Assembly (NCBI GenBank): GCA_002780895.1
Contig: PEUB01000106.1
Span: 1 to 51,315 of the forward strand
Direction: 5' to 3'
DNA length: 51,315 nucleotides
From: Nitrospirae bacterium CG02_land_8_20_14_3_00_41_53
GTDB lineage: Bacteria; Nitrospirota; Thermodesulfovibrionia; Thermodesulfovibrionales; SM23-35
Position 1 is the stretch's first letter; the number at the start of each line of letters is the position of its first letter. Shown one piece after another: positions 5,176 through 44,318 of this stretch. A program made the translations under genes and the position numbers. The notes beneath the pieces were generated by a model. That model saw nothing but the letters and a program-made list of their open reading frames with translations. It was not told where the DNA came from and did no database searches.

Positions 5176-6009
5176 ATGGCATGGTTTAAGAAGACAAAAG
5201 GAATAAGGACGGATAAGAAAGGAAAGATACCCGAAGGTCTGTGGGTTAAGTGCGATAGCTGTAAGGAGATAGTATATAAGAAGGAGATAGATAAGAACCT
5301 CAAGGTATGCCCTAAATGCAATTATCATTTCAGGATAAGCGCACGTGAGAGACTGAAACTCCTTGTTGATGAAGGGAGCTTCGTAGAAATGGATGAGGGC
5401 ATTGTATCAGTTGACCCGCTTAATTTTAAGGATACCATCTCTTATAAAGATAGGATAAAGGAGAAACAGAAAAAAAGCGGGCTCAAAGAGGCTGCGATTT
5501 CAGGGGATGCACTTATAAAAGGTTATCCTGTAAGTCTTATTATCATGGACTTTTCCTTTATGGGTGGAAGTATGGGTTCTGTCGTTGGTGAAAAGGTATC
5601 GAGGGCAGCTGAAAGGGCCGTAGAAAAAAAACAGCCGCTTATAATTGTTTCATCATCCGGCGGTGCAAGGATGCAGGAAGGGATTTTCTCCCTTATGCAG
5701 ATGGCAAAGGTCGCTGCTGCTATAGGAAGACTGAGGGATAATGGGATTCTTTATATATCAATTATGTGTGATCCAACATTTGGCGGTGTTACTGCAAGCC
5801 TTGCTACGATAGGTGACATAATTATTGCTGAACCTAAAAGTCTGATCGGTTTTGCAGGCGCGAGGGTAATAGAACAGACCATCAAACAACCACTTCCGGA
5901 TAACTTCCAGAGAGCTGAGTTCCTCCTCGAGCACGGGTTTATAGATATAGTTGTAGGCAGAAAAAACCTGAAGGAAACACTCGCTAAGCTTTTCGAACTT
6001 CTTCTATGA
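5176..6009 (+). CDS. accD: Acetyl-CoA carboxylase carboxyltransferase beta subunit
   Basis: Zn-finger CxxC...CxxC, MGGSMGSVVGEK, SGGARMQEG. Confidence 0.97.
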   Translation: MAWFKKTKGIRTDKKGKIPEGLWVKCDSCKEIVYKKEIDKNLKVCPKCNYHFRISARERLKLLVDEGSFVEMDEGIVSVDPLNFKDTISYKDRIKEKQKKSGLKEAAISGDALIKGYPVSLIIMDFSFMGGSMGSVVGEKVSRAAERAVEKKQPLIIVSSSGGARMQEGIFSLMQMAKVAAAIGRLRDNGILYISIMCDPTFGGVTASLATIGDIIIAEPKSLIGFAGARVIEQTIKQPLPDNFQRAEFLLEHGFIDIVVGRKNLKETLAKLFELLL

Positions 6010-7550
6010 GTTACAGCGAGACTGTTAATTATCTATATAATCTCCAGAAATATGGTATCAAATTCGGGCTTGATAATATAAGCAGGCTCATGTCTGCGCT
6101 CGATAACCCGCATACGTTATTTCTCTCAGTCCATGTTGCAGGCACAAACGGGAAGGGCTCGACTTCAGCAATTATTGCATCTATCTTAAAGACTGCTGGG
6201 TTCAAGGTCGGGCTTTTCACATCACCCCACATTATTAGCTTTACAGAAAGGATCAGGGTTAATGGTGAGGAGATAACCGAAAATGAAGTAGTAAGCCTTA
6301 CAGAAGAAATAAGAACCAGAATAGAGGACACCCCCTCCCTAACCCTCCCCCCTCGAGGGGGAGGGCAGGGGTGGGGGGGAGAAGTCGAACTATCACCTAC
6401 ATTCTTCGAGGTGGTAACTGCAATGGCGCTCCTGTATTTCAAAAGAAAAAAGGTAGATATAGCAGTAATAGAGGTGGGCATGGGTGGAAGACTCGATGCT
6501 ACAAACATAATTACACCTGAGATATCTATAATCACAAACATAAGCTGCGACCACAGGGAATTTCTTGGAGGTACACTTAAAGAAATAGCTCATGAGAAGG
6601 CAGGGATTATAAAAGGTGGTATACCCGTTGTAGCCTCATATCAAGAGTCTGAGGCAATGGATGTTATTGAGAAGAAGGCAGAGGAGAAAGATTCTGAGTT
6701 ATATATCTATGGGAAAGATTTTTCTTCAGTACTTAAAAGAGAAGACATTTCAGAAATATGCTTTGACTATTGGAGTAGCAGCTCTCTTATGATTAATGAT
6801 TTAATCTTACCGCTTACAGGTGAGCACCAGATGCAAAACGCCTCTGTTGCCATAAAAACTATCGAACTCCTCTCAAAAAAATTAACCTTGCACTCACTAC
6901 TTACTTCACCCTCGCTAAGCCTTCCCGTCAAGGGGGAGGAACACACCCCTACACCCCTCTCAAGAGGGGATTTACCCTCTCTCCTTGCGGGAGAGGGCAA
7001 GGGTGAGGGGTACCGTAGATTTTTGAATGCAGCTTTGTATCAATTTATCAGGAAAGGTCTCGAGAATGTTAAGTGGCCGGGAAGGCTTGAGATTATTAAA
7101 GAAGACCCGCCTATACTGATAGACGGTGCACATAACCCTGCCGCAGCAATTGCCCTTTCTAAGGCATTAAAAAAATTTTCCCCCGGAAAAAATAAAAGAA
7201 TTATACTTGTACTTGGCATAATGGGTGACAAAGATGCACGGGGAATAATGGAGCCATTATTGCCTCTCGCATCTGAAATTATACTTACTGCTCCAGCATA
7301 CAGCAGGTCAGCTTCTCCTGAAAAGCTTGCAGGTATTGCAGCATCGTTAGGATTCTTTGATGTGCGTATTGCACCTACTATGAAAGATGCTGTTGAAATG
7401 GCAATTGAAGATAGTTACAAAACCATTAATCCCCCCTTGCCCCCCTTTAATCACTCATCACTCATTGTAGTTACGGGTTCATTTTACACAATAGGTGAAG
7501 CTAAGGAAGTGCTTGGTCAGAAGGGTGTACTTACAAGGCTGAGAGAATAA
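6006..7550 (+). CDS. folC: Folylpolyglutamate/dihydrofolate synthase with three repeat-derived insertions
   Basis: HVAGTNGKGS, EVGMGGRLDATN, WPGR, DGAHN and VTGSFY motifs; 514 aa is longer than typical FolC. Confidence 0.95.
   Translation: MSYSETVNYLYNLQKYGIKFGLDNISRLMSALDNPHTLFLSVHVAGTNGKGSTSAIIASILKTAGFKVGLFTSPHIISFTERIRVNGEEITENEVVSLTEEIRTRIEDTPSLTLPPRGGGQGWGGEVELSPTFFEVVTAMALLYFKRKKVDIAVIEVGMGGRLDATNIITPEISIITNISCDHREFLGGTLKEIAHEKAGIIKGGIPVVASYQESEAMDVIEKKAEEKDSELYIYGKDFSSVLKREDISEICFDYWSSSSLMINDLILPLTGEHQMQNASVAIKTIELLSKKLTLHSLLTSPSLSLPVKGEEHTPTPLSRGDLPSLLAGEGKGEGYRRFLNAALYQFIRKGLENVKWPGRLEIIKEDPPILIDGAHNPAAAIALSKALKKFSPGKNKRIILVLGIMGDKDARGIMEPLLPLASEIILTAPAYSRSASPEKLAGIAASLGFFDVRIAPTMKDAVEMAIEDSYKTINPPLPPFNHSSLIVVTGSFYTIGEAKEVLGQKGVLTRLRE
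6329..6379. repeat. C/G-tract palindrome, in frame in folC (copy 1)
   Basis: CACCCCCTCCCTAACCCTCCCCC-CTCGA-GGGGGAGGGCAGGGGTGGGGGG, encoding TPSLTLPPRGGGQGWGG. Confidence 0.85.
6907..7010. repeat. Three-module composite palindrome, in frame in folC (copy 2)
   Basis: Module A ...CCCGTCAAGGGGGAGG, module B AACACACCCCTACACCCCTCTCAAGAGGGGATTTA (6940-6974), module C CCCTCTCTCCTTGCGGGAGAGGGCAAGGGTGAGGGG. Confidence 0.85.
7428..7464. repeat. Half palindrome plus heptamer pair, in frame in folC (copy 3)
   Basis: AATCCCCCCTTGCCCCCCTTTAA then TCACTCA TCACTCA, encoding NPPLPPFNHSSL. Confidence 0.75.
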
Positions 7551-7551
7551 C

Positions 7552-7658
7552 AACAGTGAACAGTAATCAGTTGTCAGTGAACAGTAAGAAATATAAAAGA
7601 ATTATCCTTGTCATTTTGCTATTCACTATTCACTATTCACTATTCACTATTCACTGTT
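7552..7658. repeat. Inverted heptamer arrays at the lptD 5' end
   Basis: AACAGTG AACAGTA ATCAGTT GTCAGTG AACAGTA (7552-7586) facing five perfect CTATTCA units (7619-7653) plus CTGTT. Confidence 0.9.
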
Positions 7659-9520
7659 TTGCGGAGGAACAGACAATCATAACCTCCGACACCCTCGAGT
7701 ATAGCAAGGATACAGCCACATATGTTGCAAAAGGGAATGTGAAGTTTCAGAAAGCTGATAAGGTTATCGAAGCCAATGAGATGAGATATAATGAGCAGAC
7801 ATCGGATGTCATCGCATCAGGGGCTGTAAGATATAATGACACTGACACATCATTCACAGCAAGCAGGGCAGAGTTAAATCTCGAAACAGAAACTGGCATA
7901 CTCTACGATGCAGAAATCCTTTTCAAAAAAGATAATTACCATATTTCAGGGAAAGAAATTGAAAAGAAGGGTGAGAAATATTACTTCAGCCCTGAGGCGA
8001 CATTCACAACCTGTGATGGCCCGGTGCCTGCATGGTGTTTCAGAGGCAAGAATATAGATGCTGTGGGCGGAGAGGAGTTAAAGGCAAAGGATGTATCTTT
8101 TCGTATAAAGGATATCCCTGTTTTCTATACCCCCTATTTCCGGGCGCCGCTTCTTACTGAAAGACAGGCTGGATTTCTAACGCCGGTTATAGGGTATAGT
8201 AATTTAAGGGGAGCACACTTGAATACGCCTTTTTTCTGGGCGATATCAGAAAATCGTGATGCAACTATTAGCCTTGATCTATACTCGAAGAGGGGTATTG
8301 GAGAAGGCATGGAATACAGGTATATAGAGCCCGGGGACATTAAAGGTAAATGGTGGCTTTATCACATAAGAGATACGGAACTCAATAAGAATTTCTACGA
8401 AGTAAAGGCCTTGCACGAACAGAGATCTGCAAATGGAATCGGTGGTTTTCTGAATCTGAACTTTGTAAACGAAAAAGACTTTTATAGAGAGTTCAGCCCT
8501 CATTTAGAGGTGCGCACGAACCGCTTCCTTGAGTCAACAGGAGAGATATCGCTTCCTCTTACTAATTCCCGTGTTTACCTTTTATCACAGTACTGGGTTG
8601 ACCTGAGGGATGAAACCAAACTTGTTCCTCAGAGGCTGCCTGAGGCAGGATATGTTTTGAACCCTGCAAAGGTCGGTAATCTCTGGTTTTCTGCAATGGC
8701 GACAGTCTCCAATTTCTGGAGGGATGAAGGTGTAAATGGTCAGAGACTTGATATCTATCCAAGGGTGCTGCATAAGTTCGGGAGCGATGTCGTGGTTTTA
8801 CAGACGCTGGGTTTACGGGAAACAGCCTATTCGTTGCAGAAGGGTGAGGATGATTCCCTTCATAGAGAAGCTATTGAATACAGCATAGTAGCCCATACAA
8901 GGCTTTTGAAAAGATACGAGTCATTCACGCATGTATTAGAACCTTCCATAGGATATACTCTTATTACAGATTCTGAGGATCTGCCGCTATTTGATTCAAC
9001 AGAGCTTTTTAAAAAAACATCCACGGTAGAGCTTTCCTTACTTAACAGGTTTATAAATAATGGTGGGGAGTTTATGGTTCTCAGGGCTTCACAGGGCTTT
9101 GATTCATATAAGGGAGACAGGGCATTCCTGCCATTCAGGCTTGAGGTGGGGATAAGAAGACCTGTCTCGCTGCGCCTTGATACAAGCTATGATGTAAATA
9201 CAGGTAAACTTGAGAGTATAAATTCTGACCTGTGGATGAAGATATCTGAGGCTACAATCTCTGCTGGACAGAGATATAACAGGCTGAATGACACACACTT
9301 CTATACCGCGAGCATCGGGTTATATCCCTATAAACCATTGTATACGGAGGCGAGACTCTGGTATGATGCCAAGGAAAAGAAGTCAAAGGAAATCGCCATG
9401 AATATAAAATATACAAGTCAATGCTGGGGTGTAAATATGCAATTTATTAAAAGGCCAGGCGACTTTACTGCAGCATTATTGTTTGAGTTAAAAGGGATTT
9501 CTAAAGGCCTTAAGATTTAA
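7556..9520 (+). CDS. lptD: LPS-assembly protein LptD
   Basis: OstA-like N-domain, FTTCD...PAW, PVFYTPY...RQAGFLTP, C-terminal SQCWG...ELKG; located after folC. Confidence 0.9.
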   Translation: MNSNQLSVNSKKYKRIILVILLFTIHYSLFTIHCFAEEQTIITSDTLEYSKDTATYVAKGNVKFQKADKVIEANEMRYNEQTSDVIASGAVRYNDTDTSFTASRAELNLETETGILYDAEILFKKDNYHISGKEIEKKGEKYYFSPEATFTTCDGPVPAWCFRGKNIDAVGGEELKAKDVSFRIKDIPVFYTPYFRAPLLTERQAGFLTPVIGYSNLRGAHLNTPFFWAISENRDATISLDLYSKRGIGEGMEYRYIEPGDIKGKWWLYHIRDTELNKNFYEVKALHEQRSANGIGGFLNLNFVNEKDFYREFSPHLEVRTNRFLESTGEISLPLTNSRVYLLSQYWVDLRDETKLVPQRLPEAGYVLNPAKVGNLWFSAMATVSNFWRDEGVNGQRLDIYPRVLHKFGSDVVVLQTLGLRETAYSLQKGEDDSLHREAIEYSIVAHTRLLKRYESFTHVLEPSIGYTLITDSEDLPLFDSTELFKKTSTVELSLLNRFINNGGEFMVLRASQGFDSYKGDRAFLPFRLEVGIRRPVSLRLDTSYDVNTGKLESINSDLWMKISEATISAGQRYNRLNDTHFYTASIGLYPYKPLYTEARLWYDAKEKKSKEIAMNIKYTSQCWGVNMQFIKRPGDFTAALLFELKGISKGLKI

Positions 9521-10037
9521 GCCTTGCTATCTCCATCCTTATTCTCGCAATTATATCTTCTACAGAAGTCTTATCTGTGTCCATTACAATCTCTGGATTC
9601 ATTGGTTCTTCATAAGGCACAACAATACCAGGCACGGGCCAACCCGCAGCCCCTTTTTTATAAATATCCTTTGGTGCCTCATGAGCCTCTAACCTCTGTT
9701 TCTCGCGCTCGATGCACCACTCAATAGGGCATCTGAGATATACCTCTACATATATAGGTATAAGTTGTCTTGCGAGTTCACGCCATCTCCTAAGGTTTCC
9801 TGTAGCATCTATGATTATATTGTGTCCGAGTTCTGTCAGCGTTTTTGCAAGGTAAACGAGTGACCTGTAAACTATTTCTCTTTCAGAGTCAGAATAAGTT
9901 GGATCAGGGGTAACGATCTTCCTCAGCTCATCCATTCTTAGGATTACGAATTCAGGATGCGCTTTTTTTAGTGCGTCAGCAACTGTGCTCTTCCCGCTCC
10001 CCGGAAGCCCTGTTATCCATATCGCAATGCCAGACAT
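9510..10037 (-). CDS. Adenylyl-sulfate kinase-like P-loop kinase
   Basis: AIWITGLPGSGKST, EVYLRCP, PYEEPMNPE; ATG10037 is the likely start because the ORF-track extension runs into repeat DNA. Confidence 0.75.
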   Translation of the reverse strand: MSGIAIWITGLPGSGKSTVADALKKAHPEFVILRMDELRKIVTPDPTYSDSEREIVYRSLVYLAKTLTELGHNIIIDATGNLRRWRELARQLIPIYVEVYLRCPIEWCIEREKQRLEAHEAPKDIYKKGAAGWPVPGIVVPYEEPMNPEIVMDTDKTSVEDIIARIRMEIARLKS

Positions 10038-10142
10038 ATCCCTTCCTCTACCACTTTCTTTTTTCCCCTTCTGGTATATATAATACCTAAATTGAGCGAT
10101 TCTTAATAATATAATCATGGAACTTGTTGAATTTATTATCAA

Positions 10143-10330
10143 ACACCCCCACCCTAACCCTCCCCCGTCAAGGGGGAGGGGATAGAGAAAACCCCCCGTC
10201 AAGGGGGAGGGGATAGAGAAAACCCCCCGTCAAGGGGGAGGGGATATCTATATAAATCCCCTCTTGAGAGGGGTGTAGGGGTGTGTTATCCCCCCTCCCC
10301 TGGCGGGAGGGGCAAGGGGAGGGGGATTAT
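10143..10330. repeat. Intergenic composite palindrome cluster with 31-bp tandem amplification
   Basis: CCCCCGTCAAGGGGGAGGGGATAGAGAAAAC at 10162-10192, 10193-10223 and partially 10224-10246; module B at 10253-10287; module C at about 10288-10328. Confidence 0.9.
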
Positions 10331-10368
10331 AATCGCTCAATTTAGATAATATATAATTAAATAAGGAA

Positions 10369-11220
10369 ATGAAACAGATGAAGTCAGATATTACTACCAG
10401 GGATATAGACTTTCTGAAGGAAAAGGCAAGGATCATAAGGATAGAAATCCTTAAGATGCTTACTGAGGCAGGCTCTGGCCATACAGGTGGTTCTCTGTCA
10501 ACAGCCGATATTGTTACAGCACTATATTTCTACAAAATGAGGCACAAACCCAAAGATCCGAAATGGAGGGAAAGGGACAGGTTCATCCTTTCAAAAGGCC
10601 ATGCAGCACCTGTACTGTATGCAGCCCTTGCACTTTCAGGATATTTTGATAAATCATTGCTTAATACATTACGCAAACTCGGAAGCCCCCTTCAAGGACA
10701 TCCATGCTCAAAGATGCTTCAGGGGGTCGAGATATCAACAGGTTCTTTAGGGCAGGGCTTGTCTATTGCAAATGGGATTGCTATAGGGCTTAAGCTGGAT
10801 GGGTTGGCTTCACGTGTCTATTGCCTTCTTGGGGATGGTGAGACTCAGGAAGGACAGGTCTGGGAGGCTGCCATGACTGCTGCACATTACAGGCTTGATA
10901 ACTTATGTGCGATTATTGATAATAACGGCCTTCAGATAGACGGATATTGCAGTGATGTTATGTGCATTGAGCCGATTGTAGATAAATGGGAGGCATTTGG
11001 ATGGTATGTTATTGACATTAACGGGCATGATATGGAAGCTATAGTAAATGCCTTTAATGAGGCAGAGACAGTAAAGAATAAACCGACAATGATAGTCGCA
11101 CGGACAGTAAAGGGTAAAGGCGTTTCCTTTTTTGAAGGGAAAGTTCAGTATCATGGAATAACACCTACACGCGAAGAGCTCGAGAGGGCATTAAAGGAGT
11201 TAGGAGGAGATGGAGGGTAA
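10369..11220 (+). CDS. Transketolase, N-terminal subunit
   Basis: SGHTGGSLS, DRFILSKGH, STGSLGQG and GDGE TPP-binding motifs. Confidence 0.93.
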   Translation: MKQMKSDITTRDIDFLKEKARIIRIEILKMLTEAGSGHTGGSLSTADIVTALYFYKMRHKPKDPKWRERDRFILSKGHAAPVLYAALALSGYFDKSLLNTLRKLGSPLQGHPCSKMLQGVEISTGSLGQGLSIANGIAIGLKLDGLASRVYCLLGDGETQEGQVWEAAMTAAHYRLDNLCAIIDNNGLQIDGYCSDVMCIEPIVDKWEAFGWYVIDINGHDMEAIVNAFNEAETVKNKPTMIVARTVKGKGVSFFEGKVQYHGITPTREELERALKELGGDGG

Positions 11221-43700: not shown

Positions 43701-44318
43701 ATGCCATTTATTTTTAAAAAATTATCAATACCGGAAGTTATCCTAATAGAACCAAAGGTTTTCAGGGACAGACGGGGACTCTTTCTGGAAACTTACAAAT
43801 ATTCAGACTTTGCTCAGTCGGGCATAAAAGAGCAGTTTGTTCAGGATAATTATTCAAAATCTGTAAAAGGCGTATTGAGAGGACTTCACTTTCAGAAAAA
43901 TCCCAATGCACAGGGCAAATTAGTCCAGTGTGTAAAGGGAAAGATATTTGATGTAGCGGTAGATATAAGAAAAGGTTCTCCCACCTTTAGACATTGGGTT
44001 AGTGTTGAACTGTCTGAAGAAAATAATCTTATGCTTTATGTCCCTTCTGCCTTTGCTCATGGTTTTGTTGTCCTGAGTGAAACAGCTGATGTTATATATA
44101 AGTGTAATAGAGAATATTCGCCAGAAGACGATAGGGGGATTATCTGGAATGACCCTGATATAAATATCAACTGGCCGATCAAAGACCCGGTTCTCTCAGA
44201 AAAAGATAAAAAACATCCAGCATTATATAATGCTGATATTAATTTTGAATACCCTTTTATATCCCCCCTTGCCAGGGGGGTTAGGGGTGTGTTTAAAAAG
44301 GGAGGCAGGCTGATTTAA
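43701..44318 (+). CDS. rmlC: dTDP-4-dehydrorhamnose 3,5-epimerase with repeat-derived C-terminal tail
   Basis: QDN, VLRGLHFQ, DVAVDIR and AHGF motifs. Confidence 0.95.
   Translation: MPFIFKKLSIPEVILIEPKVFRDRRGLFLETYKYSDFAQSGIKEQFVQDNYSKSVKGVLRGLHFQKNPNAQGKLVQCVKGKIFDVAVDIRKGSPTFRHWVSVELSEENNLMLYVPSAFAHGFVVLSETADVIYKCNREYSPEDDRGIIWNDPDININWPIKDPVLSEKDKKHPALYNADINFEYPFISPLARGVRGVFKKGGRLI
44259..44293. repeat. Module-B-type element in the rmlC 3' end
   Basis: ATATCCCCCCTTGCCAGGGGGGTTAGGGGTGTGTT, similar to 10253-10287. Confidence 0.8.

Follow-up and report, generated by a model that had tools for sequence, protein, structure and literature searches.

Oppositely oriented copies of one repeat unit within two mosaic cassettes of a Nitrospirota genome

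Repeats of the BoxC/PIT/TM class have been known since the 1990s, and to our knowledge they have neither an accepted function nor an accepted way of spreading. Herein we describe two repeat cassettes, probably belonging to this class, in a stretch of 51,315 nucleotides from Nitrospirae bacterium CG02_land_8_20_14_3_00_41_53 (assembly GCA_002780895.1, contig PEUB01000106.1), which as a whole is referred to as the window. One cassette lies inside the folC gene and the other between genes, and each consists of three modules, A, B and C, with the middle module B in opposite orientations at the two places. The window is contig C18 of the source genome, labelled G000, which comprises 2.0 Mb in 159 contigs with 40.6% G+C; in the following Cn is a contig within the stated genome (G000 if none is named) and Ln is a metagenome locus. 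G001 belongs to the same genus as G000, and G003, G022 and G023 represent three other genera of the family.

Two described systems are close to these cassettes. As given in the parts of Holder et al. (2015, PMC4666352) considered here, the BoxC/PIT/TMECO repeats of E. coli have a three-block plan, occur as single units or as inverted pairs of two types, and occupy loci that vary between relatives without a known mobilising enzyme, all of which resembles what is seen in G000; in E. coli K-12 there are five inverted-pair loci, each joining a type A with a type B unit. The BOX elements of pneumococcus and S. suis, boxA-boxB(n)-boxC, resemble our cassettes in that their two terminal modules pair together, while the middle module is independent, forms its own fold and may be missing or present several times, according to the sections used of Croucher et al. 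(2011, PMC3049150). Our analysis suggests that the two cassettes of the window are probably mosaics of three dispersed BoxC/PIT/TM repeats, in which B is a separately evolving unit at the centre, and that they go back to two separate insertions or founders and not to one switch.

The two cassettes and their repeat class

The starting point is an exact identity, namely that module B in folC (6940-6974, + strand) is the reverse complement of module B in the intergenic cassette (10253-10287, - strand) at 35 of 35 positions, with 0 mismatches, just as the initial annotation had claimed. The 35-mer has no further match in the window when up to 3 mismatches are allowed, and in 100 dinucleotide-preserving shuffles the mean number of matches was 0. 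The annotation was also right that A and C keep one orientation in both cassettes, with the sequences and positions it had given for them, and that a diverged B stands alone at 44259-44293 (- strand), where 29 of the columns in a 36-column alignment are invariant, the outer block is that of B and the arms are of the C6/G6 type. It had further described the same cassette as occurring twice; the A-B-C order is indeed common to both, but the cassettes are not the same, as their A and C modules belong to different sub-types and the two loci have separate histories.

In the folC cassette, module A (6907-6939, +) is a decayed unit that matches the profile of type a, with an outer C-block at 6907-6915, a spacer at 6916-6919, a C-arm at 6920-6926, the loop GTCAA at 6927-6931 and a G-arm at 6932-6939. 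Module B abuts it directly and consists of the outer block ACACACCCC, TA, a C-arm, a loop, the G-arm AGAGGGG and the tail ATTTA, being one of 20 copies in the genome. With 0 nt in between, it is followed by a module C of the BoxC/TM type (6975-7010, +), whose C-arm (6975-6984), loop (6985-6988), G-arm (6989-6997), loop CAA (6998-7000) and mirror third block (7001-7010) give the blocks CCCTCTC/GGGAGAGGG/GGGTGAGGGG. In the intergenic cassette, module A (10144-10246, +) begins with an outer block at 10144-10154, TAA, a C-arm at 10158-10166, a loop at 10167-10171 and a G-arm at 10172-10181, the unit reading CCCTCCCCC/GGGGGAGGGG; its hairpin is then triplicated in a perfect 31-nt tandem array (10162-10246, 2.7 copies, 100% matches). 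Between A and the reversed B lie six nucleotides (10247-10252), and 2 nt lie between B and module C (10290-10325, +), which has its C-arm at 10290-10300, loop at 10301-10304, G-arm at 10305-10312, CAA and mirror third block at 10316-10325, with the blocks CCCCTCCCC/GGGAGGGG/GGGGAGGGGG. An automatic parse by profiles of the a, b and c units, the a-profile being derived from six other loci, reads the folC cassette as a+ b+ c+ (C18 6917-7012) and the intergenic cassette as b- c+ (C18 10258-10326).

As to folding, a hairpin is predicted within B at 6954-6969 (z -2.5; ViennaRNA, hairpins only), and the minimum-energy DNA fold of the folC cassette has A paired with C and the B hairpin at the tip (z -2.2). 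These energies lie only modestly under those of shuffles, with z from -2.2 to -3.6 for the cassettes, and we do not rest the case on them.

The class of the units is indicated by their block plan. Perfect hairpins in G000 are C-first, that is with a C-rich 5' arm and a G-rich 3' arm, in 361 cases and G-first in 19, and since this polarity survives reverse complementing, the bias belongs to the sequence family and not to the strand. Read on the G-rich strand, the outer block mirrors the purine arm, as seen in the blocks of A in its consensus form (CCCCTCCC / GGGAGGGG / GGGGAGGG), of B (CCCCTCT / AGAGGGG / GGGGTGT) and of C (CCCTCTC.. / GGGAGAGGG / GGGTGAGGG). A flanking third block that obeys this mirror rule on at least one side is present at 311 of the 361 hairpins, and where the arms are asymmetric, the mirror rule alone fits 249 sides genome-wide and the direct-repeat rule alone 39. 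All of A, B and C have the plan of a pyrimidine arm, a complementary purine arm and a mirror third block joined by short loops. Moreover, module C (6975-7012) is 94.7% identical over 38 nt (36/38) to chromosomal repeats of E. coli, which match it in 5422 of 5426 complete genomes at a median of 7 places per genome, and its block plan is that of the TMECO table in the consulted part of PMC4666352. Module B gave only partial, chance-level matches in E. coli (10 of 5426 genomes, E about 3) and no match in the plasmid collection. Judged by sequence, A, B and C are best classified as three families of the one BoxC/PIT/TM class, whose triplex folding, examined by CD and NMR in Holder et al., is a prediction for the present units, and A..C as a mixed inverted pair of the kind formed by type A and type B in E. 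coli. The intergenic-only habit of the E. coli K-12 copies is not seen here, since the folC cassette and five other multi-unit loci lie inside long open frames.

The commonest repeat words of G000 do not come from A, B or C; they are those of a C6/G6 unit, CCCCCCTTTA-N-TAAAGGGGGG, whose outer blocks are AATCCCCCC, and heptamer-like words (GAGCATA and GCAAAGA repeats) are also frequent in the k-mer table. In some A and C hairpins the loop carries an extra small palindrome like ..TACGAGTCGTAGACC.. (C63:3880-3927, C44:52656-52700, C122:24243, C87:33701-33766), which is either a second level of nesting or a long-loop sub-family.

Module B at the centre of A..C pairs

The genome was searched for the 29-nt core of B with up to 4 substitutions allowed, and the arrangement at each site was classed by eye; the automatic parse, with profiles built from these loci, led to the same view. 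Among the 20 sites, eight are full A-B-C mosaics (C2:16316, C18:6941, C31:2124, C63:3928, C69:811, C87:33767, C156:31002 and C156:35589) and four have B reversed between A and C (C18:10258, C89:6866, C115:31185 and C120:3416). Five are partial, namely C26:20189 with an A remnant, C31:6611, which lacks A, C44:52627, which lacks C, and the tandem B pair after an A at C81:754 and C81:783, while three are solo copies (C94, C118 and C140). Seen from the side of the pairs, five A..C pairs have no B and an AT-rich spacer of 8-11 nt instead (C81:33841, C115:35618, C131:5576, C141:45503 and C43:11463), three have another unit at the centre (C11, C97 and C55), and at C73 an assembly gap hides the centre. 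A genome-wide count of A..C junctions with and without B, as the initial annotation had suggested, therefore finds B enriched at the centre and present in both orientations: among the readable centres B occupies 12 of 20, another unit 3 of 20, and 5 of 20 are empty.

The junctions obey a polarity. At 15 of the 20 sites, with one more ambiguous, the outer block of B has the end of a neighbouring G-arm no more than about 5 nt away. The gap between A and B is nearly constant in the a+ b+ loci (-1 to 3 nt), and all four reversed loci carry 6-10 extra AT-rich bases between A and the tail of B which the direct form lacks. Within seven A-B-C composites the mean identity is 0.91 for B, 0.77 for A and 0.83 for C, a greater uniformity of B that fits either its later arrival or a stronger constraint on it.

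An orthologous comparison is offered by folC itself. This open reading frame (6006-7550, +; 514 aa), of the folylpolyglutamate synthase/dihydrofolate synthase type, reads through A-B-C, and the cassette encodes residues of about 301-336 (...LSLPVKGEEHTPTPLSRGDLPSLLAGEGKGEGY...), between the domains Mur_ligase_M (139-284) and Mur_ligase_C (359-470); the mosaic probably persists there because it is in frame in a linker between two domains. In an alignment of FolC from 30 genomes of the family (29 orthologues beside that of G000) there are three indel hot spots holding Pro/Gly-rich repeat peptides in different genera, and the cassette occupies the second. At this hot spot G003 has an intact A, an 11-nt spacer and C without B, and G000 has A, B and C, with flanks that match G003 on both sides; G042 has an A remnant only, and G001 has a different unit type. 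The comparison of G000 with G003 is a presence/absence difference of B in a conserved A..C pair, and the direction of change is unrooted.

FolC ranges in length from about 442 to 548 aa in the family, and the named relatives of the protein come from Nitrospirota/Thermodesulfovibrionales metagenome-assembled genomes. Two further inserts in folC are derived from repeats. An insert at 6333-6389 in the first hot spot encodes PSLTLPPRGGGQGWGGEVE and is missing from G001 of the same genus, and at about 7425-7448 the third hot spot keeps a cut-down remnant, INPPLPPF, where relatives carry full units. In the A-B-C mosaics within long open reading frames (C2:16277, C18:6917, C26:20147, C31:6569 and C81:716) the strand of B is the coding strand in 5 of 5, and in 4 of 5 B is read in the frame giving HTP(T/A)PLSRGD, with an RGD tripeptide.

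Outside G000, copies of B, often with 0 mismatches, occur in 9 of the 24 other genera of the family; none of the 16 genomes from the order's other families has one. We examined 30 B contexts from G003, G022 and G023. Those of G003 comprise 6 full A-B-C, 3 partial and 3 other arrangements, and 2 of the 5 in G023 are reversed mosaics. In 11 of the 13 contexts of G022, B stands in a different mixed outer pair (arms CCCCTCTTTG and CCTCCCTTTG), with its outer block 3-4 nt past the upstream G-arm; these 11 composites are near-identical and share the same ends. B has three kinds of host pair: the G022 pair just described, a/c and its swapped form c/a. In metagenome contigs the exact 29-mer core of B was present in at least 113 stretches, and the 80 loci listed from them represent 75 distinct contexts, in which 13 are direct or partial A-B-C, 6 are reversed, 43 are an unrelated composite and 13 are other. 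Near-copies of the G000 loci at C156 and C26 are found in other assemblies (L189, L190, L191 and L210), all with the orientation of B unchanged.

The 43 of 75 listed contexts just mentioned (L137, L139-L144, L147 and others) place the exact B core within another widespread composite. It opens with a B-like unit in reverse that contains an insert of about 20 nt, and after 10-14 nt B follows, succeeded by AATCGCAC...CCGCCGC. The composite shares its end-to-end layout with the flanks of DUF559 genes, and it may be a gene-less cassette.

The intergenic cassette is in turn part of something larger, which the initial annotation had missed. It is enclosed by a 25-nt inverted repeat with 92% complementarity, found by inverted-repeat search at 10077-10101 (+) and 10331-10355 (+), and the same 25-nt ends recur at C11 (16855-17066), C73 (11648-), C84 (17905-18107), C87 and C89, where some of the elements hold another unit or unrelated cargo at their centre; a single larger element was clearly copied to give both the cassette and C89:6821-6934. 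With units in the spacers of pairs, and a cassette within an element with inverted ends, the earlier suggestion of elements inserting into one another is borne out as regards their nesting. The 10077-10355 element has inverted ends, as a miniature inverted-repeat transposable element (MITE) would, and its A and C mirror each other; the DUF559 cassettes described below, which carry matching units at their two ends, are a candidate for an autonomous partner. The copies make up a MITE-like family with inverted ends of the CCTAAATTGAGCGATT type and variable interiors, the C84 copy having a different repeat with GTCATTCCCGC/GCGGGAATCC arms.

The neighbours of the two cassettes are folC, an LptD-like open reading frame, an APS-kinase-like gene and a transketolase gene, and the intergenic cassette sits between the last two. 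The open reading frame at 9510-10202 (-) runs into this cassette, and its kinase domain begins only at residue 57. The region upstream of the transketolase gene lacks the element in each of the 18 relatives compared, from 30 loci, and in most (G001, G022, G012, G018, G002 and G024 among them) it has a small gene instead.

Candidate movers and the origin of the mosaics

Small DUF559 (Vsr-like) nuclease genes are the leading candidate for a mover of these units. All 4 full-length DUF559 genes of G000 have matched units on their two sides, so placed that a hairpin and its outer G-block come before the gene and an outer C-block and its hairpin after it; the unit type varies from gene to gene. By comparison, perfect C-first hairpins are present in 2.6% of random stretches of 200 nt. 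At C55:15524-15946 the ends of the gene are a sister sub-type of B. A survey of DUF559 in G003, G018, G022 and G023, in which the best 16 of 33 matches were examined, gave 12 loci bracketed on two sides and 4 on one side (one of them at a contig end); among these best 16, five have B-like ends (G023:C248, G003:C116, G003:C64, G018:C24 and G003:C230) and in two, G023:C158 and G023:C88, the left end is of type C and the right end of type A. Going by titles and abstract openings, we found no literature linking DUF559 to BoxC or triplex repeats. What the brackets indicate is an association between DUF559 and the repeats, not a mechanism.

A Y1 transposase of the IS200/RAYT type was also considered as mobiliser and rejected, for none of the 8 PF01797 matches in G000 is bracketed by units, and only 1 of the 8 has a perfect hairpin within 1.5 kb, on one side. 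One RAYT-like Y1 gene (C81:66056-66739) has its own inverted repeat, AATAGGGACACATCCCATTTTA and its complement, which is unrelated to the triplex-type units and possibly marks a separate REP-RAYT system.

The enrichment of B at the centre of A..C pairs, its absence from folC in G003, its other host pairs and the B-like units at DUF559 ends are the grounds on which we read B as an independently inserted module and not as a flip switch. In the reading that we propose, each unit is built as outer C-block, C-arm, loop and G-arm, or on the other strand as C-arm, G-arm and a third G-block mirroring the G-arm. A and C are different unit types placed head to head, which can fold as one long hairpin, and B is a third, separately evolving type at the apex of such pairs. 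The end carrying its outer block is set against a neighbouring G-arm on either strand, and B can therefore point both ways between A and C. The two B copies of the window would then be separate insertions, or copies of two founder mosaics, and their spread would be by a copy process tied to the folded form, in which the DUF559 nucleases might act or, alternatively, template switching at stalled hairpins.

A wider joint reading, which we put forward tentatively as a possibility and with considerable reserve, would take the units as the folded ends of DUF559 (Vsr-like) cassettes, each nuclease lineage having its own unit type. One cassette type would have C as its left and A as its right end (compare G023:C158), and B would be the end of another (compare G018:C24, G003:C230 and the sister sub-type at G000:C55), so that A-B-C would be a solo end copied into the apex of joined ends, in a self-nesting mobile system that targets structure.

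Several observations weigh against the insertion of B as an independent module and against its link to the nucleases. The folC difference is unrooted and may be a gain in the G000 line as well as a loss in the G003 line. The 11 near-identical composites of G022 are whole mosaics that were copied, so the excess of A-B-C may partly be inheritance, and the uniformity of B could reflect stronger constraint and not youth. The asymmetry of spacers, used below to argue against inversion, is weakened by the reversed metagenome mosaics L153, L157 and L159, which have spacers of 4-5 nt. A target-site duplication was not found, though no systematic search was made for one. As for DUF559, no gene in G000 has exact B ends, G001 has 7 copies of B and no DUF559 match, and the outer blocks face the gene in DUF559 cassettes but point outward in A..C pairs.

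The alternative that survives best, which we nevertheless regard as unlikely, is that mosaics move only as wholes: A-B-C and A-reversed B-C would be founder composites that each arose once and were then block-copied, and B would never insert alone in this lineage. The G022 composites with their common ends, the almost constant junction of A with B, the descent of the intergenic cassette and C89:6821-6934 from one larger element, and the flanks beyond A and C that are common to C43, C44 and C156, as likewise among the G003 contexts, are all what such copying would give. It is at odds with the orthologous folC site that occurs with and without B, with the three kinds of host pair, with the solo copies, with a B more uniform than the A and C next to it, and with the other unit types that take the same centre in C11, C97 and C55. 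The initial annotation had offered B as an independently mobile unit that targets the A-C junction in either orientation. Its first part is upheld in that B is a separate module, by the enrichment, both orientations, the folC absence in G003, the G022 pair and the solo copies; its second part, repeated targeting, is partly open to explanation by the copying of whole composites.

That B was flipped in place, by recombination or template switching between the arms of A and C or by an invertase, with the two orientations as two states of a switch, is very unlikely in our judgement. A and C are partly complementary and flank B, and both orientations do occur in one host family with the same outer flanks (reversed in L195; direct in L149, L201 and C156:35589), but the complementary arms extend over only about 8 nt and are imperfect, and the additional AT-rich bases of all four reversed G000 loci are not what a simple flip produces. 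The four near-identical loci elsewhere keep the orientation of G000, and the one orthologous comparison, that of folC, is a gain or loss; a reversed B, moreover, has a stop in two of three frames, so that a flip within the essential folC would often be lethal. For the other proposal of the annotation, that B is invertible, we thus see no sign: the junctions differ by spacer bases, orientation is kept in near-identical loci, and the orthologous site differs by presence or absence.

Still more improbable is a reading in which the modules arose in place as structural signals under host selection (terminators, attenuators or protein-binding sites, for example) and are alike through selection rather than copying. 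Their hairpins are stable, T-rich tails often follow, and the C-first polarity is strict (361 versus 19), yet exact identity over 29-35 nt at unrelated loci and across genera, copies within the coding regions of folC and other open reading frames, and the presence/absence differences between orthologous sites all speak against it, as does earlier work, cited in the portion used of PMC4666352, that found no promoter or terminator activity for PIT elements. Finally, it is scarcely credible that the identity or the orientation is an artefact of this metagenome-assembled genome through repeat collapse or chimeric joins, for although short repeats are hard to assemble and the 159 contigs have N-gaps inside some repeat loci (C73, C156:31030), the folC frame is open through the cassette with both sides aligning to orthologues, the same mosaics occur in both arrangements in other genomes and metagenome contigs, and 24 read runs each contain 0.78-0.91 of the sampled words of 9900-10700, a figure that concerns word content and not orientation.

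Comparison with known systems

Among the systems of short palindromes, REP/BIME and REPIN-RAYT resemble the present units in that these occur singly, as inverted doublets and as mosaic clusters of alternating orientation, with conservation across a clade. They differ in the gene concerned, since the Y1 genes here (PF01797, 8 matches) are not flanked by units, and the units bracket DUF559 genes instead. The Rickettsia palindromic elements (RPE), which Ogata et al. reportedly described in 2000, are said to be selfish elements that lie in frame in housekeeping genes and are translated as an extra surface or linker peptide. They are about 100-150 bp long, AT-richer and unrelated in sequence to the units described here, and they are not known to have a modular three-unit nesting or a triplex plan.

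The BoxC/PIT/TMECO repeats are related in class and differ in several respects. The E. coli copies are reported as always intergenic in the consulted sections of PMC4666352, whereas here the units are translated in folC and other open reading frames. There are many more unit families here, and B has no E. coli counterpart. A third unit at the centre of a pair, as seen here, was not found described in those sections of PMC4666352.

With the BOX elements the likeness is one of architecture only, as the composition is plainly different. In the S. suis elements the same boxB occurs between different terminal pairs, just as B does in the a/c and G022 pairs, but the BOX modules are larger, are not of triplex type and have no sequence relation to ours; boxB also expands in tandem arrays, whereas B is single here, with one locus having two. 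For BOX, mobilisation has been proposed from the similarity of its ends to those of the ISSpn2 transposon, and target duplications are made (all as given in the part of PMC3049150 used here).

Relative to what the considered parts of PMC4666352 and PMC3049150 contain, the translated BoxC-type units, the nesting rule at the centre, the filled and empty folC pair and B as the end of a DUF559 cassette appear to be new. Under the nesting rule, a mixed inverted pair has at its centre a third unit that may point either way and whose outer block adjoins a neighbouring G-arm. The folC pair of G000 and G003 indicates that units come or go without killing an essential gene, and the middle unit B is linked by its likeness to the ends of DUF559 nuclease genes. 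If the nuclease link is true, an orphan repeat class and an orphan protein family would be explained together, BoxC would gain an enzyme and a mechanism, and selfish DNA would be seen to have a way of extending linkers in housekeeping enzymes, giving new Pro/Gly-rich linkers in essential proteins. If it is false, what remains is still a clear case of modular repeat mosaics in a deep-branching phylum, akin to the BOX elements of pneumococcus or the BIMEs of E. coli.

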